A DNA stretch of 62,261 nt, filler included, from Nemertoderma westbladi (lineage: Eukaryota; Animalia; Xenacoelomorpha), in the NCBI GenBank assembly GCA_032718475.1. It is 3 parts of 3 records of this genome, joined end to end, with 100 filler letters (N's around TTAATTAATTAA, not from the genome) between each part and the next. Parts side by side here need not be neighbours in the genome. Positions count along the whole stretch, not along the records: positions 22,670 to 44,477 come from JAUCBJ010002203.1; positions 44,578 to 62,261 come from JAUCBJ010004600.1; 1 more part is not named here. The stretch is one strand, 5' to 3'. Made by a program: the position numbers and the translations under genes. This document shows, one piece after another, positions 1 to 56,421 of this stretch. Below the pieces are notes generated by a model that saw only the letters and a list, made by a program, of their open reading frames with translations, was not told the DNA's origin and did not search any database. Position 1 is the stretch's first letter; each line of letters begins with the position of its first letter.

Positions 1-141
1 GTTAGTTCAAAATACGGTGGTTTATCGTCAGGTTTGGTTACTACAGTACTAGCAGACTACAGGACTACAGGACCAGGCATGCCAGCTCCTTCGTTCTGTC
101 GTTCATTATCTAACAATTGACAGTGGTGCAGTTTCGGAGTG

Positions 142-29765: not shown

Positions 29766-29779
29766 GACACAGAAGAGCA

Positions 29780-32489: not shown

Positions 32490-34270
32490 TTGAACTAACT
32501 AGACCTGTTATAGTAGTTGGGGATTTCAACTCCAGCAATATCGATTGGTCTACTTCTACAGCATCTGCTTCCTGCCCTTCCCGACCCACTGCACCACGTT
32601 TTATCTAGGCTGTATCCGAAAGAGACCTTACTCAACTCACATAGCTGGTGGCATATTGGATCTTCTTTTTGTGAGTAACCCCAAATTGATAGGAAATTTA
32701 GATATAGGAAAACGGTTTGGTATAAATGACACATGTAGTGATCGCTGTCATTACTGCTACCTTACCCTCTATTACCAATCCAAAGAAAGCTTCAAACAGA
32801 AGAAACTGGTCCAAAGCGAACTGGGATGAAATTTGCAGTTCAGCATCACAGATAACCTGACATGAAATTGTGAACCCCAACTTACCACCACAGACAAACC
32901 TTCAATCATTGGAGTTTATTCTTAACTCAGTCATAGAAGATTGTGTTCCCTGTTTTAAACCCCTGAAACCTAAAGAGCATCCCTCAAGCAAAAAACTGCT
33001 TCGGAGATTACACCATACAAAATCTAAATTGGGAAGTACTTCAGATCCCACGCACATAGCTCAACTGCAACATAATCTAACTGTACTGAATTCTGCCCTA
33101 GAGTCTACATATCTTGCAAGTCAGCTCCAGTGGGAAGATAGAATACTTAGACAAAATAATTCTAAACATTTTTGGTGATACACGAAATCACACTTACACA
33201 GTCAGACTACTGTTCTAGCCATGGAAGACTGCAACAATGTACCTATTGTGGGTGATATTGAGCGTGCTTATCTCATAAACAACACACCCAAAGCATCCTT
33301 CACGAATGAAAAATGGTCTGAAACCCCCTCCAGCATCATATCATCCCCCAGGCTCTAAATTATCTTCTGTAGCTTTTCATACTCTGGATGTTTATAAAAT
33401 CCTTTCAAAGCTTCCCACTTCGCAGCTTCGCAGCTGGTCCAGATGGAATCCCTGCAATTCTACTATGTCAATTTTGTATTTGGTTATCTGATCCACTCAC
33501 GTGTTTATTCCAGCAGTTTTTCGACCAAGGTCTCGTCCCATCAAGATGGAGATTAGCTCATATTGTGCCAGCCGATATATGAGAAGAAAGGTTCCAGATC
33601 TGACCAACTTAACTATCACCCCATATCCTTGTTGTCATTGTTAGTTAAACTTATGGAAACAATAATCAGGAACACAATGCTGTCTTCTCTTTTAAGTATC
33701 AAGGCAATTAGTACCCATCAACATGTTTTATTGCAGAAAAGATCAACATTCACACAACTTTTAGATTGTAATCTGGACTGGGCTAACTTTCGAAATAGGG
33801 GCATCCCTGTTGATATAATTTATACAGATTTTAAACGACCATTTGATAAGGTCTCACACCAGAAGCTATTGATAAAACTAAAATTTTATGGTATATCCGA
33901 CAACTTACTGGTTTGATTAACTGCATTTCTCTCTGACTGGTACCAACAAACAGTCATTAACGGTGCATTATCCACCCCCATTCATGATACCAGTGGTGTT
34001 CCTCCAAGGAGCATTATTGCCCCACTCTTATTCATCATGTTTATCAACGACATTTCATCTGGAACTCTGATCAAAATATATGCTGATGATACCAAGCTAT
34101 ACATACCAATACTCAGTTCAAATGATTCTAATATACTGCACCATGATGTAAATTCCATTTTAGAATGGTCGCAAACATGGCAAATGGAATTCAACATCCC
34201 AAAATGTTCAGTGGTATCACTCCAAGCAGCACGGGTTGTAAATAATCGAGTATATCACATCCTTGATTGT
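32490..34270 (+). mobile_element. Decayed CR1-like LINE (end of APE endonuclease plus RT)
   Basis: VVGDFN, LDLLFVSN, GPDGIP, KKGSRSDQLNYHPISLLS, YTDFKRPFDKVSH, IYADDTKLY and WQMEFNIPKC across frameshifts. Confidence 0.9.
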
Positions 34271-35048
34271 GCGAATTTTAACGTGAATTTTAACTGGCAC
34301 TAATCGCTATTTCTTGACTGTTTCTCGATTGATTATAATCTTGTTTGAATCATAATTAGGGCAAATTAATACAGTATATTAGGCTAATTCTATGTAAATC
34401 AGTAGAGTAACTATAGTTAGTGTTACGAATTCTGGAATATAAATTAAATTAGTTAGCAATCTGTATAAATTGATTTAGGGTAGCTCCATACAACTTAGGC
34501 AAGTCATGAACAGTAAGCTGCATAGCGGAGAATAGACTAGATTGGTGTATTTGTAAATAATTATAATGATTAGTCTACGCTAGGCGGTTGTCCGTATAGG
34601 GGGGTGGGTGGAGATTCGCCAGTTTTATAGACCTTTAGAAGTACAATACGCAGTAAACTCACTGACCAAAAGTCAGACACCCAGACAGATTCACCACTCG
34701 TTTTAATTGATTTAATTAAAAATATTCTCCAAACAAATATTGGATTGCCTAGCGAATTACATCGCGTCCTTGACAGTTAGCAGATGGACCGAGTGTTTAT
34801 GATTACCTGCACTCGTGTTTGAAACTTAGGAAGTCGAAACAGGTTACTGTTTTGGTTAGCTTGTGTTCGGCTTCGTTTGTGATAAGAACACGTCGGGTTT
34901 TGATATTGCCGATAAGGATAATTACGCGGATATATTATTATGGTAGTATATTTGTGGATTTATTAACATTATATAACTTCTCAAAAGGTCGAATATATCC
35001 CATCATTGCAATATGATCGAGCAAGGTCGTTTTCTTTTTATATCTATC

Positions 35049-35492: not shown

Positions 35493-36243
35493 TGATTAAA
35501 TGAAAGTGATCGATATGATTATTTATATACATAAACTCAAGAGTTCACAAGACATTGCCACTGCTATCTGACTATACCCAAAATCCGGTGTAACAGATAA
35601 TTTTCATTCCCCACCCATGGTGTATTTTAACTCCCTCCAGCGAAAACTCACCCCTGCATTTATAAATTTTCACTGTGCATATCCACCCCCAGTTAAATTT
35701 CCCAAGTGTATTCTCACTCCCAGTGTATTTTTCCAAATGTGTTTTAGCTCACTCTAGTGAAAATCACATTATTGAATATCTTATATATATATATATATAT
35801 ATACCTTATTGAATATTGGCCATGTGACTTCCTTAAGCCCAGTCTTCTACAGTACTTTACTATATACAAATCTCCAGCCTGTGGTTGTATGTGTACTAGA
35901 GGTATCTGTGGTCGTTTGTTTGCTTAACTGTAGGCTTATATCGAATTTAAATTAATATTGAAATTTAAAATATCAAGGGGGTAAGAATACACTGAGAGGG
36001 TTTAAATTTCACTAAAATATCACCCAGTTTCACCCCCCGGTTAAAATACCATAATTACCTAATAAAAAAATACCCTTATTAATATCACCTGGGAGCAATA
36101 CTCGAGCTGAATATCTATTTATTTGTACTTTCCTCCTGTTTCACTCTAACATACTTGAGGCTGGTAGGTCCGCTGTTAGAGATAGGATATGCAACTTAAG
36201 ACTGCCTGTTCAATAGAAGTGGATTAGGTGAGAGAGTGAATGT

Positions 36244-36360
36244 CAGGGACAAGTGGCTGAACTGGTTAGCGCTACTGATGAGGCCTGATAGGCTGAGGTT
36301 CAACCCCCGGAGACACGCTTTCTCATTTTTTCCATTTCTGAACAAAACCATAATATTACA
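36244..36360 (+). mobile_element. tRNA-like/hammerhead element family 1, copy with a partly deleted ribozyme
   Basis: Near-identical to 39287-39420 but lacks aacgtacgtatagcgct (rest of GAAA, stem III, cleavage site, stem I 3' strand). It retains AGCGCTA-CTGATGA-GGCCTGATAGGCT-GA. Confidence 0.8.
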
Positions 36361-38492
36361 CCGACCATATTATAACAAATATTACTACTGCTACTACAAA
36401 TTCTGGAATCTTAAATACAAAAATTGGAACCTCAGACTACCAGCCAACATTTACAATGTTTATGAACTATAAATGTTACTTTAATATACAAAAAATTACA
36501 CTAAGTTCGATTATTCAAATTTCCCTTACCAAAATTTCATGAAAGACCTACCAACCACTCCTACACTTCTCATAACTTCTCAAATAAAGAAAAATTCGAC
36601 ATATTTTATCAAGATATAGAAAATTTTTTTAACTTAGATGTACCAAAAAAAGTAGTACCGCCAAGAAAAATCCCAAACAAACCCTGGATAAAAAAGTAAA
36701 AAAAAAAAGTAAATTTTCTTCGGCCGCTAGGCCAGGGATTACGCACAAAGTCTGACGACTTATTTCCAGTGCGGTCCCCCCAGAACTTTACTCCCCAGAG
36801 GAAACTCCAGTACTCATTTAGCTACCACTTAAGGATGCAAGGCAGAGATGCGCCCTGGCTGGTCCCTTTAAAGCATTCGTGCCGAAACGAAAACTGCCCT
36901 GGCCCATGTGAGGATCGAACCCACGACCTACAGGAGATGTGAATTCAATGCAACCACTACACCAAGGTGGAACCTTGGATGACTGATGCCCTCTTATATA
37001 GTACCCTAACAAAAAATAAACTCTACCGCTATTACATGAAACATCTGAAGCTAACCTTAAAACATTTAAATCGCATAGAAACAAATTAACTAGTACTCTA
37101 CGAGCCGCTGAACGACAGTACTACACCAAACAATTTCAACTAAACTCTAAAACACAAGAAAAACAAATTTAATAATAATAAAGGTTAATAATTATGTTGA
37201 TATAGGTTAATAATAAATTCAGCACTTAATAACAAAAAATTTACAATTCCCAAACAAATAACCACACGCACTGATGACACTGTACAAACCACTCGGGACC
37301 CAAAAAATATTGCGAACATATTTAACGAGCACTTTTCCACTGTAGGTACAACAATTAAATAACAAAATATCTATGTCTAATCGCTCCCAGCTCCGACACA
37401 TTCCTAACTCTAATCGCAGACCTATCTCATTCTCTCTAACTGAAACTAAACCTGTAGAAGTAGAGTATTTATTATTACTTATAAATCCTAAATCTGCAAC
37501 TTAATGATACTTTTCCGACGAGACTACTTCTATTAGCAGCTAAACCTATATCTATTCGATTAAGCAAACTTATAAACTTATCTATAAACCAAGTATTCTT
37601 CCCCAAGTCACTTCAAATAGCCAAAATTATCCCCTCTTTTAAATCTGAAGATCCGACAGACCCAAATAATTATCGACGCATTTCACTCTTACCTGTATTA
37701 AGCAAAATATTTGAGTAAAATATAAATTCTCAGCAAAATCCTACCTCTAAAAATATACTATCCTTTCAAATTCGCAATATAGTTTTCGCCCCAAAACGTC
37801 AACATCACATGTCCTTATTTCTGTCATTGAAAAAATTCACCAAGCATTAGATAACAAAAACTCGACCTGCGTTATTTATATTGGGGACTTGAGGAAAGCA
37901 TTCGATACTGTCAACCATACAATTTTACTTGACAAGCTCAACTGCTATGGCGTGCGCGGGGTCCCTCTAAAACTAATAGGTAGCTTAATGTCATCTAGAC
38001 TCCAGTACGTTTCCGTAGATAATCACTGTTCCTCTCTCCTCCCCCTCATCTGTGGGCTCCCACAAGTTCTCTTCCCCTTACTGTTTCTACTCTAACGATC
38101 TCCCTAATGCCACTACCCTACTATCCACACTATTCGCTGATGATACGACTTTCTATGAAGCAGCTGGAAACAATATAACTACTCAATCAAATAAAAATAC
38201 AAATTCTGAACTAAATAACGTTGCTGACTGGCTGATAGACAATCGTCTCTCTTTGAATCTAAAAAAACTGAATCAATTATTTTTCTCAAATGTATTAAAA
38301 AATCCTCAGGATACACCTAGATTAATAATAAACCACCAAAACATCAAACGAACAAATTGCACAAAATTTTTAGGAATCTTATGTAGATAACAAGTTAACA
38401 TGGAAATCACACATCAAACACATAATCTTCAAAATATCTAAGTCCACAGGTATATTTTATACATTACGACACATATTTCCACAACATATCCT
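36361..38492 (+). mobile_element. Decayed CR1/L2-like LINE ORF2, 5' part; continues at 41220-41840 after nested insertions
   Basis: PW, HRNKLTSTLRAAERQYY, FPKSLQIAKIIP..K..DPTDPNNYR.ISLLPVLSKIFE, DLRKAFDTVNH, LFADDT and FLGI motifs. Confidence 0.88.
36690..36972 (-). mobile_element. tRNA-derived SINE inserted in the LINE
   Basis: Minus strand has A-box TGGTGTAGTGG, B-box GGTTCGATCC and a (TTTAC)/T-rich tail. Flanking near-direct repeats aaccctggat (36680-36689) and aaccttggat (36971-36980). Confidence 0.75.
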
Positions 38493-39289
38493 TAGTTCCA
38501 ATTTGGGCGAATTTAGTTCCAATTTAGGCGAACTTAGTTCCAATTTAGGCGAACTTAGTTCCAATTTAGGCGAACTTAGTTCCAATAACTAGAAAAAACG
38601 AAAACGAATTTAGTTACAATGCATGCGAATTTAGTTCCAATGGATGCGAATTTAGTTTCAATGGATGCGAATTTAGTTCCAATGCATGCGAATTTAGTTC
38701 CAATGGAAACGAATTTAGTTCCAATTTGGGCGAATTTAGTTCCAATTTAGGCGAACTTAGTTCCAATAACTAGAAAAAACGAAAACGAATTTAGTTACAA
38801 TGCATGCGAATTTAGTTCCAATGGATGCAAATTTAGTTTCAATGGATGCGAATTTAGTTTCAATGGATGCGAATTTAGTTCCAATGGATGCGAATTTAGT
38901 TTCAATGGATGCGAATTTTGTTCCAATGCATGCGAATTTAGTTCCAATGGAAGCGAATTTAGTTCCAATGGAAGTGAATTTAGTTCCAATGGGTGCGAAC
39001 TTAGTTGCAATGGAAGCGAATTTAGTTCCAATGTTTCAGGTGTGGGGCGAGCCATGTAGTTGGCGAAGAATCTGTTTAATGATATAATTAGGTGGATGAT
39101 TAAATAATAATTGTAAATAACTAACCCAAAACGCCCACACAACCTCCTAAGTAAAACAATCTTATCCCAAACAACGCCCAACCTCTTAATCCAAACAACG
39201 CCCATCTATTTAAACAGAAACAACTGGTAAATATTGTATTTGGTGTGAAAATGGCACAATGTGCATGAATTGAATATATAATACTACAG

Positions 39290-39422
39290 GGGCAAGTGGC
39301 TGAACTGGATAGCCCTACTGATGAGGCCTGATAGGCTGAAACGTACGTATAGCGCTGGTTCAACCCTCGGTAACGCGCTTTCTCATTTTTTCCATTTCTG
39401 AACAAAACCATAATATTACATC
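39290..39422 (+). mobile_element. tRNA-like/hammerhead element family 1, intact insertion with a 13-bp TSD
   Basis: TSD tataatactacag (39277-39289) and tataacactacag (39423-39435). A-box-like GTGGCTGAACTGG, B-box GGTTCAACCC (39357-39366), T6 at 39386-39391. Confidence 0.8.
39311..39356 (+). ncRNA. Minimal type I hammerhead ribozyme
   Basis: Stem I AGCCCTA/TAGCGCT (1 mismatch; the 36268 copy has the perfect AGCGCTA). Core CTGATGA 39318-24, stem II GGCCT-gat-AGGCT, GAAA 39338-41, palindromic stem III ACGTACGT. Predicted cleavage after GTA at 39349. Confidence 0.85.
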
Positions 39423-40113
39423 TATAACACTACAGACTCAAGTCAGTCAGTATCAGTATACACGTATATTAATATATGTTTCAAAATGTGTAATTATACA
39501 TTTACAGTAATTCATTAATAATAATTCGTTTGTTATAAATGACAGAAGGGTTTTACAATTATTGTTGACCCTGGCAATACGCAATAGGCTTCGCCTACTA
39601 CCTACGTGGCTATCCCAACGATTGAAACATTGGAACTAAGTTCGTACCCATTGGAACTAAATTCGCAAGCATTGGAACTAAGTTCGTACCTATTGGAACT
39701 AAATTCGCCGCCATTGGAACTAAATTCACATGCATTGGAACTATATTCTCATGCATTGGAACTAAATTCGCATCCATTGGAACTAAGTTCGTTTTGATAT
39801 TCTGGGATTGGAACTAAGTTCGCCTCGACTGGAACTAAGTTCGCCTCGCTTTGTAAAATTTATTTTGGAACTAAATTCGTTTCAATTGGAACTAAGTTCG
39901 CCTTTGGAAATGTGCGATTGGAACTAAGTTCGTGCTACCCTATAGGGTAGTGCGCATTCTACTACACTAAATCCCTTAAAAACTAAAATAAATAAAATAG
40001 TTAGGTGTATTACCTTTAGTCACTATAGATCTCCAGCTCTCCCTATCTACAAATCACTATCTATACTCCCTCTAGACTCACTATATAAGCTCCAAGTAGC
40101 TAGCTACCTTCAT

Positions 40114-41220
40114 GGGTAACGAACTTAGTTCCAATCGCACATTTTCAAATGCGAACTCCAATTGAAACGAATTTAGTTCCAAAATAAATTTTACAAAGCG
40201 GACTTAGTTCCAGTCGAGGCGAACTTAGTTCCAATCCCAGAATATCAAAACGAACTTAGTTCCAATGCATGCGAATTTAGTTCCAATGGAAGCGAATTTA
40301 GTTCCAATGCATGCGAATTTAGTTCCAATGGAGGCGAATTTAGTTCCAATGGATGCGAACTTAGTTCCAATGCAAGCGAATTTAGTTCCAATGGATGCGA
40401 ATTTAGTTCCAATGGAGGCGAATTTAGTTCCAATGGATGCGAACTTAGTTCCAATGGAAGCGAATTTAGTTCCAATGGATGCGAATTTAGTTCCAATGGA
40501 AGCGAATTTAGTTCCAATGGATGCGAACTTAGTTCAAATGTTTCAATCGTGGGGATAGCCACGTAATAAGCGAAGCCTATTGCGTATTGCCACTATTTGT
40601 GGTGGGTCAGGGTCAACAATAATTGTAAATAATTGTAAAACCCTTCCGTCATTTATAAAAAACGAATTATTATTAATGAATTAAATGTATAATTACACAT
40701 TTTGAAATATATATTAATCACGAGTATAGGCCTAATGACTGACTGAGTCTGTAGTATTTATATACTCAAGTCATGCACATTGTGCCATTTTCACACCTAA
40801 TACAATATTTACCAGTTGTTTCGGTTTAGGTGGATGGGCGTTGTTTGGGTTAGGAGGTTGGGCGTAGTTTGGGTTAAGAGCTTCGGCGTTGTTTGGGATA
40901 ATATTGTTTTGGTTAGGGAGGTTGGGCGTTTTGGGTTAGTTATTTACAATTATTATATAATAATCCATTTAATAGTGTAATTAAACAGATTCTTTGTCAA
41001 CTACGTGGCTCGCCCCATACCTGAAACATTGGAACTAAATTCGCTTCCATTGGAACTAAATTCGCTTGCATTGGAACTAAGTTCGTTTTCGTTTTTCTCT
41101 AGTTATTGGAAATAAGTTCGCCTAAATTGGAACTAAATTCGCCAAAATTGGAACTAAATTCGTTTCCATTGGAACTAAATTCGCAGTAGGCTTAAATTGG
41201 AACTAAGTACGGGGAATCAC
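40114..41220 (-). mobile_element. Second, inverted copy of the 21-bp-array element (no hammerhead insertion)
   Basis: Core 40541-41025 is the reverse complement of 39033-39625. Terminus gggtaacgaacttagttcc. Confidence 0.75.
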
Positions 41221-41840
41221 CTTGATGTACGTACAATATAAATAACATCTCAATACTAAACGATACACTGCAAAATTAATTTAGGAAATCCTACTCCATA
41301 CATAGATACAATACACGCTCATCGGCTCGTGGAGACTTTTATATAGACACAGTAAGACTAGATTATTCACAACGATCCGTGAGTTTTCAAGGTCCTATGG
41401 TTTGGAATGAACTACCCCTGGAAATTCGAAAATGAAATCAAAGGTTTATTTACTAAAAAACTAAAAAAACATATCTTAGCTCTATAATAAAATTAAAGAA
41501 ATTCTAATAATACAAATTACTAACTCAACACAGTATCTCCCATAAGTTTGCGCCCAGCAGCGTATTGTATCGTGGCGGAGTGGAATGGAACTGCTAATAA
41601 ACTAACAAATTACTTCACAATTAAATTCAATCGAATCCTGAGTACTCCACAAAACCACACCCCCACCCCATCACCACCCCCCCATAAAAATTCAAGCAGG
41701 TAAGCAGTCGAGCTACACTAGCTATGCTATTGCTCGACTGCAGTTGTAAGACTAATATCTTATACAAAGCAATTTCATGTGCTATTTATAATTGATGTAT
41801 TATGAAAGAAATAAATAAACTAAACTAAACTGAACTGAAC
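41220..41840 (+). mobile_element. 3' end of the CR1/L2-like LINE with a microsatellite tail
   Basis: YSQRSVSFQGPMVWNELPLEIR...FTKKLKKHIL; tail aataaataaactaaactaaactgaactgaact. Confidence 0.7.
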
Positions 41841-41879
41841 TTCCACCCATAATTAGGAAAGTTGGACATAGGTTTATAA

Positions 41880-42545
41880 GAGCAATGCGTTTGTTTGTGG
41901 TGTTTCCTATGAGTGTGTCAAGCTTTCCAGAGTACCAGACTTTATAATTTGGCATTGATTAACTTAAGTCCATGTTTCAACTCACTCCTCCCAATACTTA
42001 AATTGATACTTACTCTGAATAATTAAAATTGTAGAGACGCATAACTCTATGTGATCAACCGAAGTTTTATTAAATATGGACGAGCCAAGAAGTCGAAGAG
42101 CCTTAATGAAAAATGAAGAGAAAACTTTGCCTTCTTGAATTACAGGCACGTAAATATGGAACTTACACATTTTTTTAGAGTTGTCATCCAGCGGCGTTTC
42201 GATACAGGGAATGTTGCTTCTATAACTTCAGAAAATATGTTGGATATATAGAATATATGGAATGCCGTTGTTTGTGGTGTCTCCTATGAGTGTGTCACGC
42301 TTTCCAGTACCAGAGACTTTATAAGTTGGCATTGACATGTTTTTCAGAGGGTTGTATTAGGCCTATTATCGTTTGTATCCTAACTCCTCCCCAATACTTA
42401 TATTGATACTTACTGCTAATAACTCTATGTAACAAACCGAAGTTAAATTAAATATGGATGAGCCAAGAGGTCGAAGAGCCTTTGAAAAATGAATAAAAAC
42501 TTCGCCTTCTTGAATTACAGGCAAGTAAATATGCAACTTACACCT
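41880..42545. repeat. Local ~380-bp tandem duplication of unidentified sequence
   Basis: gtttgtggtgt.tcctatgagtgtgtca...ccttcttgaattacaggca occurs at ~41890-42150 and ~42270-42525. Confidence 0.75.
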
Positions 42546-43589
42546 GGTTACTATTACTACTAAAATCCGCTGCTGCATTGAAGCTGCACATTGAGATGTT
42601 ATGCTGGCTTAACAAAATTATTTTTGCCAGCACCATTAATTTTGCATTAAAATGCTAAATTAAAAATTGGTAACCCTATACCAGATATTTATTGCATTTT
42701 TATATTTTTAAAATGTTCTAGAACACTTGGCAGACCCTAAAATCAATTTTGTACCACATATATATCCTTAATATACCTTAGTATACCTATAACATTAATA
42801 TGACATTATCTTTCCACAACCTATAAAATGTGACCACAACCTATGAAATGTGAACCCTCCCACCCTTATATGCGCGAAATTATTATCATGGAATCATAGC
42901 TTGATCATTGATGGGTTAAAATTTGACATGTGTAGAATTTTTTAACAGAACTACCGACTTCATCTTCTTTAAAATAAAATATAGCTAGTGTTTTCATGGA
43001 AATTGCTAATGGACGTGTTAATCTTCCATTTTAATGAATGTAATTATCGCACTCAAGGACACCATATGTTTGTTAGTTAATTAATGACATATTAGCAAGA
43101 ATGTCATTCAGCAATCATTATTTCTTTAAAAGTACTTAATACTAATAATTTAGTTGTGTACAAATTTTTATATTTCTGGTACATAATTTACTTTTTTTGA
43201 CACTTTATTTTTGGCCAAACACTTCCTCTGATACATGCTTCTACACCAGTTTTATCTGTTTCTCAGATATCAACAAAAAATATCACAGATTAATATAATT
43301 TTCAATAATTTTCCCACAGGTGATTTTGGTTGAGTGGCTTCATCTTATTTCTTTGGTGGCTATAATAATATAATAATAATATACATCGCCTTTCTGGGTG
43401 TTTTTCAAGGCACTACTGTACCCTACTGTAGGGACTACATATATATATATATATATTTGTAACAATAAAATGTATCAAAAATAAATTTCAGTAAAAACAA
43501 TCTAAAAAATATTCACTAACAAACAATTAGATTACAATGAATGCGAGATGAAATAAAAACAGTGTTATACAGTAATGAAAATAGCAATA

Positions 43590-43900
43590 TTTCTGTGTAA
43601 AAAGGTGGGTTTTCAGTTGGGATTTGAATAAAGTCAATGTTCCAGCGTGCTGTACATCTCTTGGGATGGAGTTCCACATAGTTAGAGTAGCGATCAAGAA
43701 AGAACGTCGTACTGCTCTAATTTTTCAACTAAATTTTTTATTGTTACGTAACCTTTAATTTAATTTACAATGCGAATTATATAGGTATACACTACCTTAA
43801 CAATAATATATATTTTTCAAATAAATAATCAGGTGCACCCCCGTTGATACATTTAAATGTTAGCGTGGCAATCTGAAATTCTATTCTATGCTTAATTACG
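43590..43900 (-). mobile_element. L2-type LINE 3' fragment
   Basis: Minus strand RIEFQIATLTFKCINGGAPDY and WNSIPRDVQHAGTLTLFKSQLKTHLF. Confidence 0.75.
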
Positions 43901-44218
43901 ATTCAACACCTGTGTTAGGTTGTCTTGTTTCTTCACGTACACTAATATAGTCGCGATTTTATATATTTGTCCATAATGAGCATAAAGCGATTCTGACCAG
44001 GTTTCCACACAAGCTCTTGTATGATAGATTATCTTGAGTACCCAATCAAAAGAACTAGAACTCTAAAACTCTATAAGAACTCTATAAGTAATATTGTCGC
44101 AGATGAAGCACTATGTTGTAGGATTGGCTTCTGTGTTACTCCTGCACATGAATCATAGTCACCTTTTCTGATTCTGATTTCCCCAGTGTCTTCATCCAGA
44201 ATTCATCGAAACTATAGT

Positions 44219-44477
44219 GTGGGGCGAGCCACGAAAGTAAACGAGCTTAGGATACAGGTACCTCTAACTCGGTGGGTCACTCAATCGGTGTGTCTGTTGT
44301 TCTGTCGCTCTGTTGTGTCCAATTTTAAACGTTAATGACTCAGCCAAATGTTAATGAAATTTAACCAAACTTGCTACACATGTAGTCTGGCCAAAGTTTT
44401 GAAATTTTCCAAGTTGAATTTCCGTGTGTCCTTCGAGAAGCTAAGATAATAGCAATTCATTAGTTAATTAAGTTTAT
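44219..44477 (+). mobile_element. Helentron/DINE-1-like dispersed repeat, copy 2 (cut by the gap)
   Basis: Similar to 4631-4866. Confidence 0.55.
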
Positions 44478-44577
44478 NNNNNNNNNNNNNNNNNNNNNNN
44501 NNNNNNNNNNNNNNNNNNNNNTTAATTAATTAANNNNNNNNNNNNNNNNNNNNNNNNNNNNNNNNNNNNNNNNNNNN
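44478..44577. other. Assembly gap with artificial TTAATTAATTAA linker
   Basis: N44 + linker (44522-44533) + N44. Confidence 0.97.
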
Positions 44578-45874
44578 ATTTTGCAACCTTATTGCCTACT
44601 GCAATAAGATTATAAACTGTTACTGTTCGCGCTTTTGAAGACCTTTAGCAGTTTAACCTGCCAAAATTTATATGTCTTTTAGTTAATTAAAACCACTTTA
44701 GCATACGACAATAATTTATGCTAATACGCAAAACACTAGCCGAAGTCAGCCCATGCGCGATCATTCACCCGATGGATCTACACCCGGGAGACTGAATTCG
44801 GATGCTTGAATTTTATTATTGCAGTGTAAGGTTGCAGTGTATACCTACTGTATTATTCAATAGATCGTTAATAATTAATCTCTGACAGATATTATTGGCT
44901 TTCGGGAAATATTAACAGTTCCTTTAGGACGTGGCGCTTTATCTATTTAAACAGAACTAAGACTTATACTAAAACGCAACGATACTGCTTATGATTAAAG
45001 TATAAAGCGTATTCTTTAGGAAATACTTTGTTACCAATCACGATCGTACACACTATTCTGCCGACAGTCAGTATATTTGATCACACATAAAGAGAGCAGT
45101 AATTGACTCACGTAGGGTCTGCTAAATAACATTGGATTCAATACACACCACATTAATATAAATCGCAATTGTTATGTATAGCCGGTCTCTCTAACCTGTA
45201 GTGTTATCAAGAAAATTGGGAATTTGGGTGATTTATCCGTATTATCCAAAGAGCAATATTTCCATCAACAAATAGGTACAATTAATAACTGACGGTAAAA
45301 TAACAATACCAACAATATGATTAATGCAATTAAATTAAGTAAGTATGTTAAGATGCGTTAAGGTTCGATTCGTTAAGGTAACAGTTTATACTTTCGATAA
45401 TTCAAGCAGTTTACTAGAGTTCTTACCGAAAAGCCGGTGTTTCTGGCTTAGACAGCAATAACAACAAAGTATCAAGTAAAAACAGTAAGACTGAACACTC
45501 TCCTTATGATCGACTGAAAAGCTACACGTCGACAGGAAAAATCGCTCCGATTGGCTCAAGCCAAACAAAGAACCGTGCGTCCAATGGCTGTTTCCATGTC
45601 AGCAACCAGCTGTTAGATGTCGTAATATGAATTATCACGGCTAAGCTGTGAAAGGTAGTTGGTGCATTACAGGTTTTTTGCCTTACCATGTCCGCCAAAA
45701 CACGTATATAGCAGAATGATTTTTATGTCCGTTAAAACACCTGTAAAGGTACCTTGTGGGCGAGGGGAATATATATACAGTCAGAGAACCCTTTTAGAGT
45801 ATTCCAGCGCTTGGGGGGGAACTGGCCAGCAAAGGCAAACGTATCAGTTATCCCACAAAAGCTTTTACACTATT

Positions 45875-47541
45875 CATACACCTGAGGTTCTCACTTTGAC
45901 ACGTGCCCTTGGCTGCAACCGAGTGGTTGTGGAAGCCTGGTTCACCCTGCTCAAAAATAAGTTAACCGAACTAGGTATAGAGGATCGGCCAGGGCAAATA
46001 TTTAACTGCGGCGAGAGTGGGTTGGGAACAAATCCGAAGGTAAAGCGAATAATCACTAAGAGAGGCGCCAAAAATCCAGTAAATATTATTCCTGGATCAG
46101 GAAAAGAACAGTATACAATCTTGGCAACTGTTAGCGCTGCTGGTAGAAAGTGTCCACCCATGGTAATATTTAAAGGAAAGAATTTATACGCTGAATGGAC
46201 AAAAGGTGGACCCGATAATACGATATATGGTGTATCGGAAAATGGATGGATGGACACAGCCAACTTTGCTGATTTCTTTCGATATTTTGCTACAGTTTGG
46301 TTAGTGGGTGTGCCAAGACCTGTTCTTCTAATATACGACGGCCACTTGAGCCATGTCTCATTGCAGGTTGTCTTGATGGCAATAGAACATAAAATCCATA
46401 TATTATGCCTCCCTAGCCATTGTTCTCATCTTCTTCAACCGTTGGATGTCGGTTTATTCAAACAAACCAAGGAGGAGTGGCGGTGCATCCTTCAAACGTT
46501 CTAAAAGGAATCTAGGCTGAAAGCGGTTGGAAAGGCAAACTTTCCACCACTGCTAAAGAAGCTATATGATAAATCGTTCAAGCCTACCCATATAGTAAGT
46601 TCTTTCTCTAAGTCAGGAATAGGCCTATTCCCATTTGACCCCCAAGCAATACCAAGGGAAAAACTGTCACCAGGAGATGTATTTGATCGGCCTTTACTAT
46701 TACCAACACCCACTGCTTGCAGTTGCAATACAGCTCAGATACAATGTCTTACACCCACCGCTTCCAATACAGCTCAGATACAACAAAGTCTTACAACCAC
46801 CGCTTCCAATACAGCTCAGATACAATGTCTTACACCCACCGCTTCCAATACAGCTCAGATACAAAGTCTTATACCCACCACTTCCAATACAGCTCAGATA
46901 CAAAGTCTAATACCCACCACTTCCAATCCAGCTCAGATACAAAGTCTTACACCCACCACTTCCAATACAGCTCAGATACAAAGTCTTACACCCACCACTT
47001 CCAATCCAGCTCAGATACAAAGTCTTACACCCACCCCTACCGCTTTCAATCTACCTCAGCAACAAACTCCACTCATTACACTGCCATGTAGCTCAGTCAT
47101 TGTCAGCTCACCGACTTCCGCAATTAAACAAGCGGTTACACATTTGCGAATACAACACAATGATGTTCGATCTAAGAGGGCATCAAAGGTTATTATGGGG
47201 GGGAGTGTCTGACGGAGGTTGAAGCACTAAATCGGTTAAGTGAGGAGACGGCGGCAAAGAAAGTTGCCTTGGAAAAGAAAAAAGATAAAAGAAGTAAGAA
47301 TAAAAAGTCTGCCAAGGCTAATTCTGTATCCAGCACTGTCAGCACTTCAACATCTAATGTCTCAATTAACAGTGATGACAATTTCTGCTACAACTGCCAG
47401 AAGAACTGGCATGATGATGCTTCGAATCAACAAGATATATGGGTGATTTGTGATATGTGTGACAACTCATGGAGTTGCACCGATTGCTTACCTGATGATT
47501 TTGACTATGCTGGGGAATTCATCTGTAACCTTTGTGAATAA
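45875..47541 (+). pseudogene. Pogo/Tigger-type (DDE_1, CENP-B-related) transposase with a C-terminal PHD-like finger; inactivated
   Basis: IFNCGESG (first catalytic Asp replaced by Gly), SENGWM, LLIYDGHLSH and QPLDVG. Premature TAA at 46502-46504 with coding similarity continuing (SFSKSGIGLFPFDPQAI). Terminal CYNC...WVICDMCDNSWSCTDC...FICNLC. Confidence 0.88.
46725..47040 (+). repeat. 42-bp minisatellite inside the transposase (ccaatacagctcagatacaaagtcttacacccaccacttc-type), about 7 copies
   Basis: Direct reading. Confidence 0.85.
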
Positions 47542-47889
47542 TAATTGGATGCGGGGGATTATTTGATATTATGACTATTATTGGCTTCAACTTTGAACAT
47601 TTATGTATCTGAACTTGGAACGCTTATGTATCCAAACTTTGAACATTTATATGTCTGAAACCTATGTATCCAAACTTTGAACATTTATGTTTCTGAAACC
47701 TGGTTATTTACCTACTTCATAGTGTACCACTATTTCAATTTGTATTATAGGCCTATTAATTGCAACAATTACATATGCAATACTTAGCTATGCTTGAAGT
47801 GCAATATTATAATTTGTTGTTATTTGTATGTACGATTCAAGATAATAATTGGTATATGTTTATCTGATGTTTTTTTAAAACATTAAAAA

Positions 47890-48322
47890 TGGTTCACTTT
47901 ACCCCCTGAAAATTACTGATTGGGGTAAAATGGTTTTGAACCTTATTTGAAAGAAAGCTCACTTTGCCTCATGAGCTATTCGAGAGGTCAAAAAAAAATA
48001 CATAATCTGCCTATTTAATAGGCAAATTATGTATTAATTCTATCATAGCAATTACTGACTGGGGTTAAACGGTTTTGCAAATGATTTTAGAGATAGCTCA
48101 CTTTGCCCCATGAGTGGGGTAAATTGAGCTACTTGTGTGCTCTAAACAAAAGATATAATTTTCCTATTTAATAGGCAAATTATGTTTTAATTTTTGTGAG
48201 GTGGATTAGAGCAATAATGTAGTGCACAAAGGAATGCATTGGTATTTCCTCAATGTGATATTAACTATTTTTAAAACACGAAAAACTGCAAAAGTAGCTC
48301 ACTTCACCCTAGTTTATTAGTA
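47890..48322. mobile_element. Right end/TIR region of the pogo-like element
   Basis: Repeated (g)ctcacttt(g/a)cccc-type motifs near 47893, 47957, 48096 and 48297, ending ...cttcaccctagtttattagta. The left end was not found. Confidence 0.5.
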
Positions 48323-48557
48323 ATATTATTTTTTTTATATTTATGTGTGGGAAGGGCGTCTCGCCCTCAATCCCACCCCCCTCAGCCTAATTAAATAAAA
48401 TTGAATTAAATAATAATAATTAATGTAATTAATTAACTAATTTACGTGTTATAATGATTATTACTTACTATGGTACGTGGTACGGTATTGAATTATACCC
48501 TAGGCCTAATTAATTAATTTAACGTGTTTTAATAAAAGAGGTCTATTAATTAATTAC

Positions 48558-49408
48558 CTGTAATAATATGCCGGTCATCTTTACAGAAATCGACAGCAAA
48601 GATGCGGCTCCCCGTTCCTCCAATCCGGTTGATAACCTCCCCAGTTACAGAATTTAGAATATAAATCAACCCGGTCTTCCACCCAACAACAGCGATTCTG
48701 GATCCGTTCGGACTCAATACGATCGTCAGGGCCTCATGAGTTGCTTTCTGTCTCCACAAGGTCTCCCCTGTATCAACAACGAAGCGATGGATCCCTCCTA
48801 CCCTATCTACCGACACCACTGACTCCCCATCCGGACCCCAACCCAGACTCCAGACCCCCCCAATGTGATCCCAGTGTTGGTACAACATCCCCTGGGTTTC
48901 GGTCGCCCAAACTTTTACTGTTCCATCACTCGAACCGCTGGCCAACCGGGACCCGTTCGAGTCGAACCGAATACAGTAAACTGGCCCAGAATGCCCCACC
49001 CAGTTCGTAACCTTATATTTCCTCCCAGTTATTGATATAATAGAAATCCACCCGTCGTCCCCACAAGTTGCAATAACGTCCCGGTTGGAGGGATTTATAT
49101 CTATTCCCAACCTCCATTCATGCTCCCCCCCACCAAACACAAACTCCCCCCCCCGGTACCTCCACTACGACCCTCCAACCGGTCGTTTCCCGCTCCCAGA
49201 CCGTCACCGACCCCGCCCAGGTTCCCGAGGCAACGCGGTTCCCGTCCGTAGAAACCGCGACTGTAATGTAATCGATAGAACCTCCGGATTCCGGTAGATC
49301 TTCCTTTTCGTAGAGAGTTGTAGAGTTTATGATACAGGGGGGGTTGCGAGACACAAAGACAACCTCCTCGGTACCCGGGATCATTTTGAGTTCCAGGATC
49401 GCCGCCAT
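48558..49408 (-). CDS. WD40-repeat protein, probably the first exon; apparent frameshift in a C homopolymer near 49146-49153
   Basis: Repeats such as GHSGPVYCIRFDSNGSRLASGSSDGTVKVW and VAVSTDGNRVASGTWAGSVTVW. ATG at 49408 (MAAILE). ACAG|gtaatt at 48558 is a likely donor rather than the stop at 48550. Confidence 0.8.
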
Positions 49409-51119
49409 TGTTAGGGGGATTATTGAGTCTAAAAGATAAAATAACATTTAACTTTCATTTTTTCTTCTTATTCGAATATAATTTAATATAATAAGGGGGG
49501 GGGGGGGGGGGGGGGGGGGAGTTTAACGGTTAATCCAACAGTGTTTATGTTGTAGTCACCACGAGCCGCCGAGAGTTTATTCTGTGTGAATAACAGATGT
49601 TGTCCTCACGTAAGTTTGAAGATGATATTTGGTTAGTATTTATTTTGAACAAGAATATAATACCTACTTAGTATTTATATATTAATTTGAAATATTTCAA
49701 CTTAATATATTAATAGAACTAGACGGCTGCATCAGTGGACTGTTGGTGTTTGCAATTAGATGGAATTCATATAAATTAATTTAGAAATTTCAAACTTGTT
49801 TTCCTCTGTGGGCCAAATTTTGGTGCTCCACCAAATTTTGGTGCCGCACCAAATTTTGAAATCCTTTCAATAGTTCAATCGCTTGTGACAACTTATTTCT
49901 CGCATTTTACAGTTACGTTTATTTTAATACAAACTTTGTTTTTTTTCTCGGGAAAAGAAAGTTTTTATAATTAAATATTTGTTCTAGAATATAATTTTTT
50001 CGATAACAAATAGCTGAAATTTTTCTTGAACATTTAAAAAAATATTATCAAAAATTAATTAGTGTTCATTTCGATGGTTTATTTGATTCAATTGCCGACT
50101 TGTTTTGTTTTATTTGAACATAATATTATAATTGTTCTACAGCAGCTACCATTTAAAATCTCTAAAAAATTTATTGAAAAAATGCTGCAAAATTAAACAA
50201 AAAAAACGCCTCACACATCGGGCTATGTAAAAGTGCCCCTTCAATATTACCCCTGTTTTATTGTTAACAACTGTTCTATTCCTATTAGCTATAAAAGTAC
50301 AATTTTATTTGTTACACATTTATTAGCGGGATTATAACTATCTCTAATGCTGGGCTACGGCCATAAAAGTTATTTTGCTCTAGTAGGGCAAAATAACCAT
50401 GTTATTCCCTCTTAGAAGTAGTGAAGTGTTACATACTGACATACAAACATAGGAACCGGTAATGCTGCTGTACTCGTCTTAGGTCTGTTGTGTGTCACAT
50501 CAGGTGCAAATCAGGCATTCAGACCACCAACTAGTTTTGTATTTCATGTGAAAATATTTTTCGTGGAATTTCTTATATTTTATTACATGTGTTGAAAGAG
50601 CATCGAAGTAGAAAATGTTTGCAGCTTTGTATGTAATTTGAGCAAAATCCACGCTCAATAGTAAACTCAATATATTTACTCAATAGTAAATAACTTAATA
50701 TATTCTTAATAAACTTAATATATTCCAGAACCATTAAATTATTTAACATTGAGTAAGGCAGCATCAGGAGGATGAGTACAGTAATTTGAACCCCAGAACT
50801 ACGATAGCAATATAGTTTGCTAATAATTTACTTTAATAACTATTACAACAATCCGGTTAAGGATATTCTTGGTATAAATTGAATTGCACTAGAACAGAAA
50901 TATAAGTAAAAAAAGTACCAATTTAAGAATAAAATTACGTATTATATGGCAAAAAACGTAGGGCCTAGCACATTTATTTTCAATTATTCTCTCGACCCTT
51001 TATTAACTTCGCTGGCGCTCGGGAAATAAAAAAAGTATAGTGTAGTGGAAATAAGTATAGTGGAAAAAAGTTGTAACTTTTATTTTCCTAAGTACTAAAT
51101 ACTTAAGTTAATTACAGTC

Positions 51120-51163
51120 ACACGGCTGATGATAACCAGAAGTTTGAAACCTAGGTACCGGGT
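51120..51163 (+). ncRNA. Minimal type I hammerhead ribozyme (copy 1)
   Basis: ACACGG-CTGATGA-TAAC-cagaa-GTTT-GAAA-CCTAGG-TA-CCGGGT. One stem I mismatch. Predicted cleavage after 51157. Confidence 0.75.
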
Positions 51164-51486
51164 TCGAGCCCCAATAGGGCCGGTTGATATTTTTCGCTAT
51201 GGAGAGCATTATCATATTGTCCTATCTACATTATATATTTAATTCACCGTCACTCACCCCACAACAATTCATTTATTATTATTAATTAGCAGCCTGGGCC
51301 AGGCATTACGGGGTTACAGTGGTTTCTACAACACTGTATAATAGTTATTCTTTGAGGCATGGTTGCCATTTCTGGCAGAGCACGGGAATAACGAACTTGT
51401 TCTTTCCTTTGAGTGATTAGTTGTCCTAAATATGATCTCCCACTCCACAGCGAAATATTCATCCGGTCTGGTAGCTCAGTACAGTC

Positions 51487-51530
51487 ACCCGGCTGATGAT
51501 AACCAGAAGTTTGAAACCTAGGTACCGGGT
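51487..51530 (+). ncRNA. Minimal type I hammerhead ribozyme (copy 2)
   Basis: Perfect stem I ACCCGG/CCGGGT, core CTGATGA 51493-99, stem II AAC/GTT closed by U-U, GAAA 51513-16, palindromic ACCTAGGT. Predicted cleavage after GTA at 51524. Confidence 0.82.
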
Positions 51531-52231
51531 TCGAGCCCCAATAGTGCCGGTTGATATTTTTCGCTATGGAGAGCATTATCATATTGTCCTATCTACATTA
51601 TATATTTAATTCACCGTCACTCACCCCACAACAATTCATTTATTATTATTAAATACTTAATTATACTAATAAAATGTATTTAATGTGAACAATACCGTCT
51701 GTGGGTAATGGATACATGACTTGTCCACCAAATATACTATTCAATTAATTCAGCCAATTTAGTTATATATCCAATTTGAAGTTTATGCAATATGTTACCC
51801 CTAGCGGCCAACATAAGGAAAATATAGAAATTTTAGAAAGTAAACCATTTAAATAAGTTTGACATCAATTTTTACAAACAAATTCGGGTGATTTTTGATG
51901 ATCGAATCTTACGGCGATTGGATGAATTAAGCCTAGAGCTATACAACACACATGACACAGTAATGTTTTACCTTGGAACTTGGGTGTTATTATTCCCTTG
52001 GGCAAAATAACACCTATGCAATTAATGAATTAAAGTGAAACACACCGAAAATTTTCCAATTCCCTTGGGAAAAATAAATATAAACACCCCCAAAACTTTC
52101 CAAGCCCCATTTTGTAAACTCTTCCCCCAAACAATGCCCTTTTAGAATCTGTAAATAGTTGTTAAGGGACAAAAATAATCGAAATGCATACCATAATAAA
52201 TGTGTAACAACTTACTTATTCCCCAGAAGTT

Positions 52232-52312: not shown

Positions 52313-52624
52313 GCATAGAGCAATATAAATTTGTTATTAATAGAAATTGTTTCCAACTTTATAACTACATGTAAAAATGGAAGCAGGACAATTCGGTCCC
52401 GGACAATTCGGTCCCATTTATTTTGTGTTATGGGACCGAATTGTCCTGAACCAAATTAAATTGGTACTATAATGGTGAATGTTCTCAACCTTAGTATATA
52501 TTTTTCTACGGTAACTAGTGTTTTTTTACTAGTTAATCATTTAAAAAATTCACTTTTTATCCGCAAAATGCGGACATAAAATACTTTTTTGTCCGCATAA
52601 GCGGACAAACCCGGATGCGGATAC

Positions 52625-55600
52625 ACCCCTTCTACAGATCCCCCCATACCTCCCACCCCGTCTCCTACACCATCCACAGATCCCCCATACTTCCCGCACC
52701 GCCTCCCACACCCTCCACAGATCCTCCTGTACTTCCCACTCCGTCTCCCACGCCGTCCACAGATCCCCCCATACTTCCCACTTCGCCTCCCACACCCTCC
52801 ACAGATCCCCCCATACCTCCCACTCCGTCTCCTACACCATCCACAGATCCCCCCATACTTCCCACACCGCCCCCCACACCCTCCAAAGACCCTCATGTAC
52901 TTCCCACTCCGTCTCCTACACCCTCCAAAGATCCTCCTGTACTTCCCACTCCGTCTCCTACACCATCAACAGATCCCCCCATACTTCCGACTCCGCCTCC
53001 CACACCCTCCAAAGATCCTCCTGTATTTCCCACTCCGTCTCCTACACCCTTCACAGATCCCCCCATACCTCCCACTCCGTCTCCTACACCATCCACAGAT
53101 CCTCATGTACTTCTCACTCTGCCTCCCACATCATCCGCAGATCCTCCTGTACTCCCCACTCAGTCTTCCACACCCTCCACAGATCCTCATGTACTTCCGA
53201 CTTCGTCTCCTACACCCTCCACAAATCCCCCCATACTTACCACTCCGTCTCCTACACCGTCCACAAATCCCCCCATACTTACCACTCCGTCTCCTACACC
53301 CTCCACAGATCCCCCCATACCTCCCACACCCTCCACAGATCCCCCCATACCTCCCACACCCTCCACAGATCCCCCCATACCTCCCACGCCGTCTCCTACA
53401 CCATCCACAGATCCCCCCATACTTCCCACTCCGTCTCCTACACCATCCACAGATCCCCCCATACTTCCCACTCCGTCTCCTACACCCTCCACAGATCCCC
53501 CCATACTTCCCACTCCGTCTCCTACACCCTCCACAGATCCCACCATACTTCCCATTCCGTCTCCCATACCCTCCACAGATCCTCCCATACTTCCCACTCC
53601 GTCTCCCACACCCTCCACAGATCCCCCCATACCTCCCACTCCGTCTCCTACACCCTCCACAAATCCCGCCATACTTACCACTCCGTCTCCTACACCCTCC
53701 ACAGATCCCCCCATACCTCCCACTCCGTCTCCCACACCCTCCACAGATCCACCCATACCTCCCACTCTCCCACTCCGTCTCCTACACCATCCACAGATCC
53801 CCCCATACTTCCCACTCCGTCTCCTACACTATCCACAGATCCCCCCATACCTCCCACTCCGTCTCCTACATCCTCCACAAATCCCCCCATACTTACCACT
53901 CCGTCTCCTACACCCTCCACAGATCTCCCCATACCTCCTACTCCGTCTCCCACACCCTCCGCAGATCCCCCAATACCTCCCACTCTCCCACTCCTTCTCC
54001 TACACCATCCACAGATCCCCCCATACTTCCCATTCCGTCTCCTACACCCTCCAAAGATCCCCCAATACCTCCCACTCTCCCACTCCGTCTGCTACACCAT
54101 CCACAGATCCCCCCATACTTCCCACTCCGTCTCCTACACCATCCACAGATCCCCCATACTTCCCATTCCGTCTCCTACACCCTCCAAAGATCCCCCAATA
54201 CCTCCCACTCTCCCACTCCGTCTGCTACACCATCCACAGATCCCCCCATACTTACCACTCCGTCTCCTACACCCTCCACAGATCTCCCCATACCTCCTAC
54301 TCCGTCTCCCACACCCTCCGCAGATCCCCCAAAACCTCCCACTCTCCCACTCCTTCTCCTACACCATCCACAGATCCCCCCATACTTCCCATTCCGTCTC
54401 CTACACCCTCCAAAGATCCCCCAATACCTCCCACTCTCCCACTCCGTCTGCTACACCATCCACAGATCCCCCCATACTTCCCACTCCGTCTCCTACTCCC
54501 TCCACAGATCCCCCATACTTCCCACTCCGTCTCCTACACCCTCCACAGATCCCCCCACACTTCCCACTCCGTCTCCTACACCATCCACAGATCCCCCCAT
54601 ACTTCCCACTCCGTCTCCTACACCCTCCACAGATCCCCCCATACTTCCCACTCCGTCTCCTACACCATCCACAGATCCCCCCATACTTTCCACTCCGTCT
54701 CCTACACTATCCACAGATCCCCCCATACCTCCCACTCCGTCTCCTACACCCTCCACAAATCCCCCCATACTTCCCACTCCGTCTCCTACACTATCCACAG
54801 ATCCCCCCATACCTCCCACTCCGTCTCCTACACCCTCCACAGATCTCCCCATACCTCCTACTCCGTCTCCCACACCCTCCACAGATCCCCCAATACCTCC
54901 CACTCTCCTACTCCGTCTCCCACACCGTCCACAGATCCCCCCATACTTCCGACTCCGCCTCCCACACCCTCCACAGATCCCCACATACTTCCGACTCCGC
55001 CTCCCACACCCTCCACAGATCCTCCTGTACTTCCCACTCCACCTCCCACACCCTCCACAAATCCCCCCATACTTACCACTCCGTCTCCTACACCCTCCAC
55101 AGATCTCCCCATACCTCCTACTCCGTCTCCCACACCCTCCACAGATCCCCCAATACCTCCCACTCTCCTACTCCGTCTCCCACACCGTCCACAGATCCCC
55201 CCATACTTCCGACTCCGCCTCCTACACCCTCCAAAGATCCCCCAATACCTCCCACTCTCCCACTCCGTCTGCTACACCCTCCACAGATCCCCCCATACCT
55301 CCCACTCCGTCTCCCACACCCTCCACAGATCCTCCTGTACTTCCCACTCCACCTCCCACACCCTCCACAAATCCCCCCATACTTACCACTCCGTCTCCCA
55401 CACCCTCCACAGATCCCCCCATACCTCCCACTCCGTCTCCCACACCCTCCACAGATCCTCCTGTACTTCCCACTCCACCTCCCACACCCTCCACAAATCC
55501 CCCCATACTTCCCATTCCGTCTCCTACACCCTCCAAAGATCCCCCAATACCTCCCACACTCCCACTCCGTCTCCTACACCATCCACAGATCCCCCCATAC

Positions 55601-56062: not shown

Positions 56063-56421
56063 CTAATATATTCAGCAACAGTTTAGGCCTAATTCTGAAA
56101 TATCAATGTTTTCACAAAATTTGTTATAATTTGAAAAAACTACTACCTAGTAAAAAAAAACACTAGCTACCTTAATAAATCATATCTAGTAGTGTTCTCG
56201 AACACTTACCAATAACAAATATAAAAATAATACCGGTACCGTATTTTTAAAATTTCAAACAATAATAGCTAGTAAAAAAACAGTAGCTACCTTAAAAAAA
56301 TATATCTACTAATGTTCTAGAACATTCACCATTATCAAAAAAAGCATTAAAAAAACGCTAAAAACTGACAGGTATACATTTATTATATAATATATTATAC
56401 ATATTAATATATGCTAAATAA

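Follow-up and report, generated by a model that had tools for sequence, protein, structure and literature searches.

Two small retroelement families of Nemertoderma westbladi with a predicted hammerhead ribozyme between Pol III-type A and B boxes

A stretch of DNA of 62,261 nucleotides from Nemertoderma westbladi (Xenacoelomorpha; assembly GCA_032718475.1), hereafter the window, was analysed for two families of small repeated elements, each predicted to carry a hammerhead ribozyme between the A and B boxes of an RNA polymerase III (Pol III) type promoter. The window consists of three contigs joined by N spacers, and the spacer at 44478-44577 separates the contig of family 1 from that of family 2, in agreement with an earlier reading made from the sequence alone (the sequence-only reading). 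The features of family 2 are as follows.

51107-51649, plus strand: family 2 insertion, 543 bp, or 1.48 units of a 367-bp repeat
51096-51106 and 51650-51660: perfect 11-bp target-site duplication flanking 51107-51649
51119-51170, plus strand: first hammerhead, in a 5'-truncated unit; predicted cut after 51157; B box 51161-51170
51158-51524, plus strand: predicted cut-to-cut monomer, 367 nt, 42% G+C
51449-51565, plus strand: complete unit, the only one in the window, with every part present
51449-51469 / 51544-51565: outer stem of this unit; 51465-51471 / 51542-51548: its acceptor-like stem
51472-51480: A box; 51528-51537: B box; 51557-51561: T5 run
51487-51492 / 51525-51530: helix I; 51493: CTGATGA; 51500-51512: helix II
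51513: GAAA; 51516-51523: palindrome; predicted cut after 51524
26281-26304, plus strand: decayed core and helix II resembling those of family 2, on family 1's contig, without helix III or B box

The features of family 1 are listed in the same way.

39290-39422, plus strand: family 1 insertion, a single unit of 133 bp, recognised by its motifs and an Rfam match
39277-39289 and 39423-39435: 13-bp target-site duplication with one mismatch, flanking 39290-39422
39297-39308, plus strand: A box; 39357-39366: B box; 39386-39391: T6 run
39310-39317 / 39350-39357, plus strand: helix I; 39325-39337: helix II
39318, plus strand: CTGATGA; 39338: GAAA; 39341-39348: palindrome; predicted cut after 39349
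36230-36360, plus strand: second family 1 copy, 82% identical to the 39290 copy
36254-36265, plus strand: A box; 36297-36306: B box; 36326-36331: T6 run
36230-36244 / 36312-36324, plus strand: outer inverted repeat

The order A box, helix I, CTGATGA, helix II, GAAA, palindrome, GTA, helix I, B box and T-run, as first described from the sequence, is present at 39297-39391 and 51472-51561, and the 5'-OH ends predicted at 39350, 51158 and 51525 are correct as sequence positions. The pattern of hammerhead core plus B box had three matches in the window, a number reached by none of 100 shuffles (shuffle mean 0.00). The motif order is far beyond chance, with every part present in just one of the four copies (51449-51565). 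General consensus patterns were used for the A and B boxes, and background rates were taken as the fraction of window positions having the given motif within a stated distance. These were 0.19% for a strict A box within 40 nt, 1.3% for the relaxed 9-nt A box of the family 2 form, 0.12% for a B box within 25 nt and 6.7% for T5 within 30 nt. A local Rfam scan matched family 1 to Hammerhead_1 at 39312-39355 (E 0.0016, 22.6 bits, gathering score 34) and family 2 to HH9 at 51487-51531 (E 0.01, 19.7 bits, gathering score 52). The scan of the whole window gave no hammerhead and no tRNA. Hammerhead-like cores with poor helices (CTGACGA ... GAAAC ... GTA) also lie on the minus strand at 5643 and 61291, in a repeat common to contigs 1 and 3 (5258-5880, 60927-61524); these are probably not ribozymes.

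In both families helix I is formed by 6-8 pairs and helix II by 4-5 positions, and helix III consists of two pairs capped by a palindromic tetraloop. The canonical type I hammerhead is described with a helix I of about 6 bp, a helix II of about 4 bp and a helix III of 1-2 bp with a palindromic loop, the metazoan form acting as a dimer, whereas the minimal hammerhead of Penelope elements has a helix II of 7-8 bp, a bulged base and little or no helix III (described in the text of PMC4209133). The predicted ribozymes of both families are of the canonical metazoan type I form and not of the Penelope minimal form to which they had been assigned. The base of helix II in family 2 is a U.U, as it is in an active axolotl retrozyme. 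When the cores alone were folded, the double hammerhead (-28.4 and -27.8 kcal/mol) was about 9 kcal/mol below two monomers (-19.2 and -18.2 kcal/mol).

The starts of the A and B boxes are 56-60 nt apart in the two families, and the hammerhead would occupy the place of the anticodon and variable arm between them, as originally proposed. CTGATGA starts 21 nt after the A-box start, while the anticodon loop starts at 25-26 nt in the three tRNAs measured. The resemblance to a tRNA differs between the families. In family 2 the acceptor stem is in exact tRNA register (5/7 pairs in copy B, 6/7 across the monomer junction, with a chance of 0.014), three of the five T-stem pairs are kept and the predicted cut falls at the tRNA 48/49 step. 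Family 1 keeps a D stem of four pairs but has no acceptor stem (1-2/7 pairs), and ARAGORN found no tRNA gene in the window elements. The tRNA-like fold suggested earlier therefore holds in part for family 2 and fails for the acceptor of family 1, and the predicted tRNA fold of both families is partial. A comparison with possible source tRNAs (42 tRNAs from mostly phage loci) gave best scores at or near the shuffled maxima. The elements have no poly-A, and their tail had no LINE-like match (long interspersed nuclear element) elsewhere in the window.

Both families are mobile, as seen from the 13-bp (39290-39422) and 11-bp (51107-51649) target-site duplications. For family 2, contigs from public DNA runs (X1, X3, X4 and X5) were also available. 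Empty-site contigs in X1 and X3 join 51095 to 51650, the 11 letters fitting on either side, and this confirms the boundaries of the insertion. That the empty site is an allele was considered and rejected, with depths of 616 and 399 far above those of single pieces and with the flank itself repeated; these contigs probably derive from other members of a repeated host target. The two parts of the tandem overlap (51113-51288 and 51480-51655) match at 98%, and the repeat period of 367 bp is also the spacing of the two predicted cut sites. The duplication and the 367-bp tandem unit, neither of them noted in the sequence-only reading, make family 2 retrozyme-like. The predicted monomer of this family has the B box at its start, the A box and the core of the ribozyme at its end, and one T5 run (51190-51194). 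The design described for 51107-51649 is complete in the second unit, but the first lacks an A box and has one mismatch in helix I, the A box of the family fits the consensus in its first nine positions only, and helix II contains the U.U. The three overlapping open reading frames (ORFs) that were scanned had no Pfam match, and a phage blastn search with the family 2 head gave no match.

Family 2 was matched by 1971 contigs in X1, 1132 in X3, 139 in X4 and 3 in X5. The summed X1 depth over the element was 18,647-215,934, compared with 577-2,479 on most flank bins (6,084 on the first) and 5.7-40 for listed single pieces. This points to hundreds or thousands of copies, the depth itself not being a copy number. 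Run X1 or X3 may stem from the same source as the window. The search of public runs listed no RNA run with the element, a result without bearing on its expression, and X5 is an RNA run only by guess. In other copies the tail runs into the spacer and the spacer into the ribozyme with the order kept, and in X4 the spacer depth is far below that of the ribozyme and tail, so that spacers differ between subfamilies. In many copies (23 and 17 contigs) the 5' end is 51486, which lies beyond the A box, where helix I starts. Seven of the 15 joints shown are opposite-strand joints, mostly at low depth, and may reflect the internal inverted repeats of family 2. Variation was assessed among 40 listed variant rows of 80, of which 34 fall in the element, at 26 monomer positions. 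None of these 26 coincides with any of the 51 positions that make up the boxes, the core, helices I and III and the T-run (p 0.018). The listed ribozyme changes affect only N7, loop II and 51500, where T>A (X4) closes the base pair of helix II. In one pair of the outer stem, the change 51466 G>A (15%, 19%) has a rate similar to that of 51180 C>T (14%, 16%), and the two would be compensatory, these being per-position rates only. As for the decayed relic at 26281-26304, its 18 fixed letters are expected 3e-6 times per window, for a pattern picked after the sighting.

The figures for family 1 come from its two window copies only. The 39290 insertion has its 5' end at tRNA position +1, 7 nt 5' of the A box, and overlaps its target site by 3 nt at the start; its helix I has a C.C mismatch. 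The outer inverted repeats described for both families exist, at 36230-36244/36312-36324 in family 1 and at 51449-51469/51544-51565 in family 2, but the 39290 copy is without the 5' arm. With this arm missing and helix I mismatched, the full family 1 design is pieced together from two copies. The copy at 36230-36360, earlier taken as a ribozyme unit from 36244 onwards, has a deletion of 17 nt that takes the end of GAAA, helix III, the cut site and the 3' part of helix I, and so cannot be a ribozyme; it shows no clear target-site duplication, and its 5' boundary is not defined. A decayed unit upstream, near 36025, was considered as a sign of a family 1 tandem and rejected (p ~0.1).

The surroundings of family 1 are rich in repeats. 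The 39290 insertion lies inside a repeated region in which 38868-39289 and 39426-39933 match 40749-41185 and 40250-40758 in inverted orientation, and several 21-bp repeat arrays with shared flanks occur in both orientations at 38491-41211. A degenerate LINE (36360-38490, plus strand) follows directly on the dead family 1 copy, with an RVT_1 match at 37751-38092 and the end of an endonuclease-like region recognised by eye. Within it, on the minus strand at 36720-36970, is an ordinary-looking tRNA-headed short interspersed nuclear element (SINE) of about 250 bp with A and B boxes, present as a single copy in the window.

The two families had been described as sharing no obvious sequence beyond the motifs and as two independent instances of one architecture. 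A likeness of their tails was noticed first and tested afterwards. Besides the 21-nt spacing from A-box start to CTGATGA, the distance from B box to T-run is 19 nt in both. The sequences 3' of the B box align without gaps, with 24 of the 50 other tail bases identical (p 0.0004-0.0008 in global and local shuffles; best of 25 registers), and 91 of 124,410 window positions reach this score. For the dead copy of family 1, 20 of 48 bases match the family 2 tail (p 0.008-0.02), and the family 2-like relic at 26281 lies on the contig of family 1. The absence of shared sequence is contradicted by these data and independence becomes doubtful; common descent or a shared tail signal is probably the better account than two separate inventions. 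A 12-nt motif upstream of both families (36123, 51397) was not significant, 63-172 of 300 shuffles being as good.

It is proposed, with a probability of roughly 0.6, that both families are non-LTR (long terminal repeat) retrozyme-like elements in which Pol III A and B boxes flank the cut site. The central point of the sequence-only reading, namely retroelements of a self-cleaving type with Pol III-type boxes around a dimer-type hammerhead, is supported. Metazoan non-LTR retrozymes are described, in the text available, as non-coding elements with tandem units of 150-450 bp, a G+C content below 50% and duplications of more than 4 bp, and a circular intermediate is proposed for them (PMC7229834). 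Both families resemble them in the canonical type I hammerhead with a weak palindromic helix III, in duplications of 11 and 13 bp and in being non-coding, and family 2 also in its ribozyme-delimited unit of 367 bp, present 1.48 times, with 42% G+C. They differ in having A and B boxes and a T-run, metazoan retrozymes being described in the text of PMC7761336 without a promoter or a motif indicating the partner.

At the level of motifs, the present elements also share their combination of A and B boxes and a type I hammerhead with Sm-alpha and Sj-alpha of Schistosoma, SINE-like high-copy tandem retroelements with tRNA-type Pol III boxes (PMC6765202, PMC2770079, PMC2576457). As described in these texts, the Sm-alpha promoter is followed by the ribozyme, which is left at the 3' end of the cut monomers, and the head is called tRNA-Gln by tRNAscan-SE. 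By this description the present elements differ, since their ribozyme lies between the boxes, the predicted cut separates the boxes and ARAGORN finds no tRNA. With the pseudo-LTR hammerheads of Penelope-like elements (PMC4209133, PMC8557442, PMC11167929) they share a palindromic helix III region, dimer action as a prediction and partial tandems, but they are without an ORF and have the canonical ribozyme, and no tRNA-type boxes are reported for Penelope-like elements in the text examined. Pseudo-LTRs of Penelope-like elements flank an ORF with reverse transcriptase and GIY-YIG domains, and a tail of 30-40 bp is a further mark of such elements. The tRNA-derived SINEs and the small-RNA-derived LTR elements Helenus and Ajax (PMC10886601, as far as described there) likewise have internal A and B boxes, duplications and a borrowed reverse transcriptase. 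They contain no ribozyme, and are unlike the present families with their lack of an intact cloverleaf and their terminator-like T-run after the head. The literature searched contained no natural element with a ribozyme between the boxes, a result which the original Sm-alpha description, the supplement of PMC7229834 and the repeat databases, all outside its scope, could change. What is new here is the hammerhead between the A and B boxes; retrozymes and the promoter-plus-ribozyme idea of Sm-alpha were known already. Engineered ribozymes in tRNA anticodon loops belong to the older literature, and the literature search returned none of them.

Other DNA was scanned for the same arrangement. In metagenomes the hammerhead/B-box pattern occurred at 39 loci, none of them a relative of family 1 or 2. 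Thirty-five were not counted as hammerheads: 34 had neither helix at four pairs, and one (L037) had four pairs in helix II and two in helix I. The others are copies of one repeat.

L012:1-125, L015:1-124, L017:1-127, L035:1-126: near-identical end of a repeat, ~125 bp, with different flanks, in one assembly

These contigs begin inside the repeat, and its order is a D-arm-like A box, a hammerhead, and a B box in a T-arm with 4/5 pairs. The hammerhead has an Rfam type III match (E 0.00028, below gathering), with a predicted cut site in or at the A box. One flank matches DUF6535, which we take to be a marker of mushroom-forming fungi, and the repeat is probably fungal. Judged from its motifs, this putative hammerhead in a tRNA frame is an independent instance, unrelated to families 1 and 2. 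Among viral contigs the strict pattern gave 0 matches and the relaxed pattern at least 120 loci, 2 of those 120 passing a weak helix filter (3 and 4 pairs).

The remainder of the window contains further repeats and coding remains. A scan of 89 window ORFs (88 of 125 listed plus a retinoblastoma-like ORF) detected LIM, WD40 and methyltransferase domains and LINE, DDE, hAT and THAP fragments, a content suggestive of an animal. The retinoblastoma-family ORF (121-2766, plus strand) is intronless and divergent (RB_A, RB_B, DUF3452), with an internal 21-bp proline/threonine repeat, and protein searches found two relatives 28-34% identical to it. Long tandem arrays are located at 15190-22569 (32 bp), 52622-56068 (42 bp), 7390-8752 (15 bp) and 3048-3764 (18 bp), and a self-inverted stretch of 740 bp at the start of contig 2 (22674-23413) is probably a foldback element. 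Transposon remains at 45659-47541, 57122-58075, 33557-34303, 29595-29897 and 30466-30930 comprise a DDE_1 transposase, three further RVT_1 fragments and one unassigned retrotransposon-like ORF.

For the retrozyme-like elements proposed here, the following cycle may be envisaged. Pol III would start just 5' of the A box, and many transcripts would end at the T-run (~100 nt), with some reading through. As helix III is only 2 bp, a lone ribozyme would be weak, and a single-unit transcript would stay uncut and insert like a SINE, as may have happened at 39290 with its tRNA +1 start. In tandem transcripts, two ribozymes would pair via the 8-nt palindrome and cut out a monomer of 367 nt in which the B box lies 5' and the A box 3'. 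A host ligase would close this monomer into a circle, as in other animal retrozymes. A LINE or Penelope reverse transcriptase that went round the circle more than once could then produce insertions of 1.5 units, of which 51107-51649 would be an example; these contain the A-ribozyme-B junction and would so have the promoter restored. Because the ribozyme lies between the boxes, its cleavage would divide the promoter, which would likely be regained only through rejoined or uncut junction copies. Ligation by a host enzyme and copying by LINE or Penelope enzymes follow the published retrozyme model, as outlined in PMC7229834.

Several observations weigh against this proposal. Both Rfam matches are under the gathering score, and the family 2 A box is without GG. 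When the boxes are added to the fold, other dimers have a lower energy than the double hammerhead (-41.6 and -46.4 versus -28.4 and -27.8 kcal/mol); in family 2 monomers the hammerhead helices have a mean pair probability of 0.0, and with common variants at most 0.02. At 51180, 26% of the depth is C>G, which breaks the outer-stem pair mentioned above, and the variant table gives its 40 of 80 rows as per-position rates without linkage. Family 1 is represented by two copies, of which one is dead and the other mismatched in helix I. The weak point of the cycle is the T5/T6 run 19 nt past the B box, which should stop most Pol III transcripts, so that monomer production needs read-through. No partner reverse transcriptase was identified for either family in the window data, and for the Penelope-like enzyme named in the sequence-only reading, no Penelope ORF was seen among the window ORFs scanned.

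The best surviving alternative, although an unlikely one beside the proposal, is that of promoterless retrozymes produced by host read-through, in which the box-like letters serve RNA structure, as distal helix I or as a ligase or reverse transcriptase signal, or are a remnant of a captured tRNA. The letters of one box can form base pairs with those of the other, giving a distal helix I (five pairs in family 1, four in family 2), and the B box overlaps helix I; this predicted box-to-box pairing is the main rival to the putative promoter role. The T-run would also prevent monomer synthesis by Pol III, the text of PMC7761336 describes animal retrozymes without promoters, and the many family 2 copies starting at 51486 leave out the A box. 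Against this, a strict A box, an exact B box, their 56-60 nt spacing and a T-run 19 nt further on form a layout like that of a tRNA gene, the boxes and T-run are free of listed variants, and the 39290 insertion begins at tRNA +1.

Less probable again are tRNA-derived SINEs moved as uncut Pol III RNA, the hammerhead being vestigial or a binding fold and the tandem arising by read-through or template jumping. Such an origin would suit the SINE-like 39290 copy (one unit, +1 start, 13-bp duplication) and the active fold not being the predicted minimum, and a Penelope element was inserted in vitro without needing ribozyme cutting, according to the text of PMC11167929. It is difficult to reconcile with the lack of listed variants in the core and helices I and III, while N7 and loop II do vary, with ribozyme cut sites at both ends of the 367-nt unit, and with the absence of a poly-A tail and of a LINE-like tail match in the window.

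That the elements are non-autonomous Penelope derivatives, or solo pseudo-LTRs with acquired tRNA-like letters, is improbable. The partial-tandem layout would fit, as would the 7/15 opposite-strand joints, inverted 5' pieces being typical of Penelope insertions in the description of PMC8557442; but such joints can arise from the elements' own inverted repeats, the helix II of 4-5 bp and the presence of helix III are unlike Penelope minimal ribozymes, and no GIY-YIG domain was detected among the 89 window ORFs. A chance coincidence of motifs or an assembly artefact, to which the Rfam scores under gathering and the empty whole-window scan might point, is very improbable in view of the 0/100 shuffles, the target-site duplications, the many variant contigs with the same order in three DNA runs and the 35/39 metagenome pattern loci that, unlike the window matches, are not counted as hammerheads, and for family 2 it is refuted by the shuffles, the DNA-run contigs with the empty site and the target-site duplication.

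A wider and clearly tentative suggestion is that mobile RNAs with a hammerhead in place of the anticodon arm of a tRNA, cutting within their own Pol III promoter, form a recurring class with at least two origins (type I here and type III in the probably fungal repeat). In such a class, only circles or uncut RNA would again yield transcribable copies, and the same letters would double as DNA promoter and RNA ribozyme helix. Animal retrozymes give very abundant circular RNAs, but according to the texts of PMC7761336 and PMC7229834 neither the promoter nor the partner that mobilises them is known. Both questions become testable, in an element of 100-370 nt, with a family whose A and B boxes are fixed and whose 3' tail is conserved. 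If the proposal is true, division of the promoter by its own ribozyme would account for insertions longer than a single unit and would connect SINEs with retrozymes, and the elements would represent a compact natural design for producing RNA circles from a Pol III promoter.

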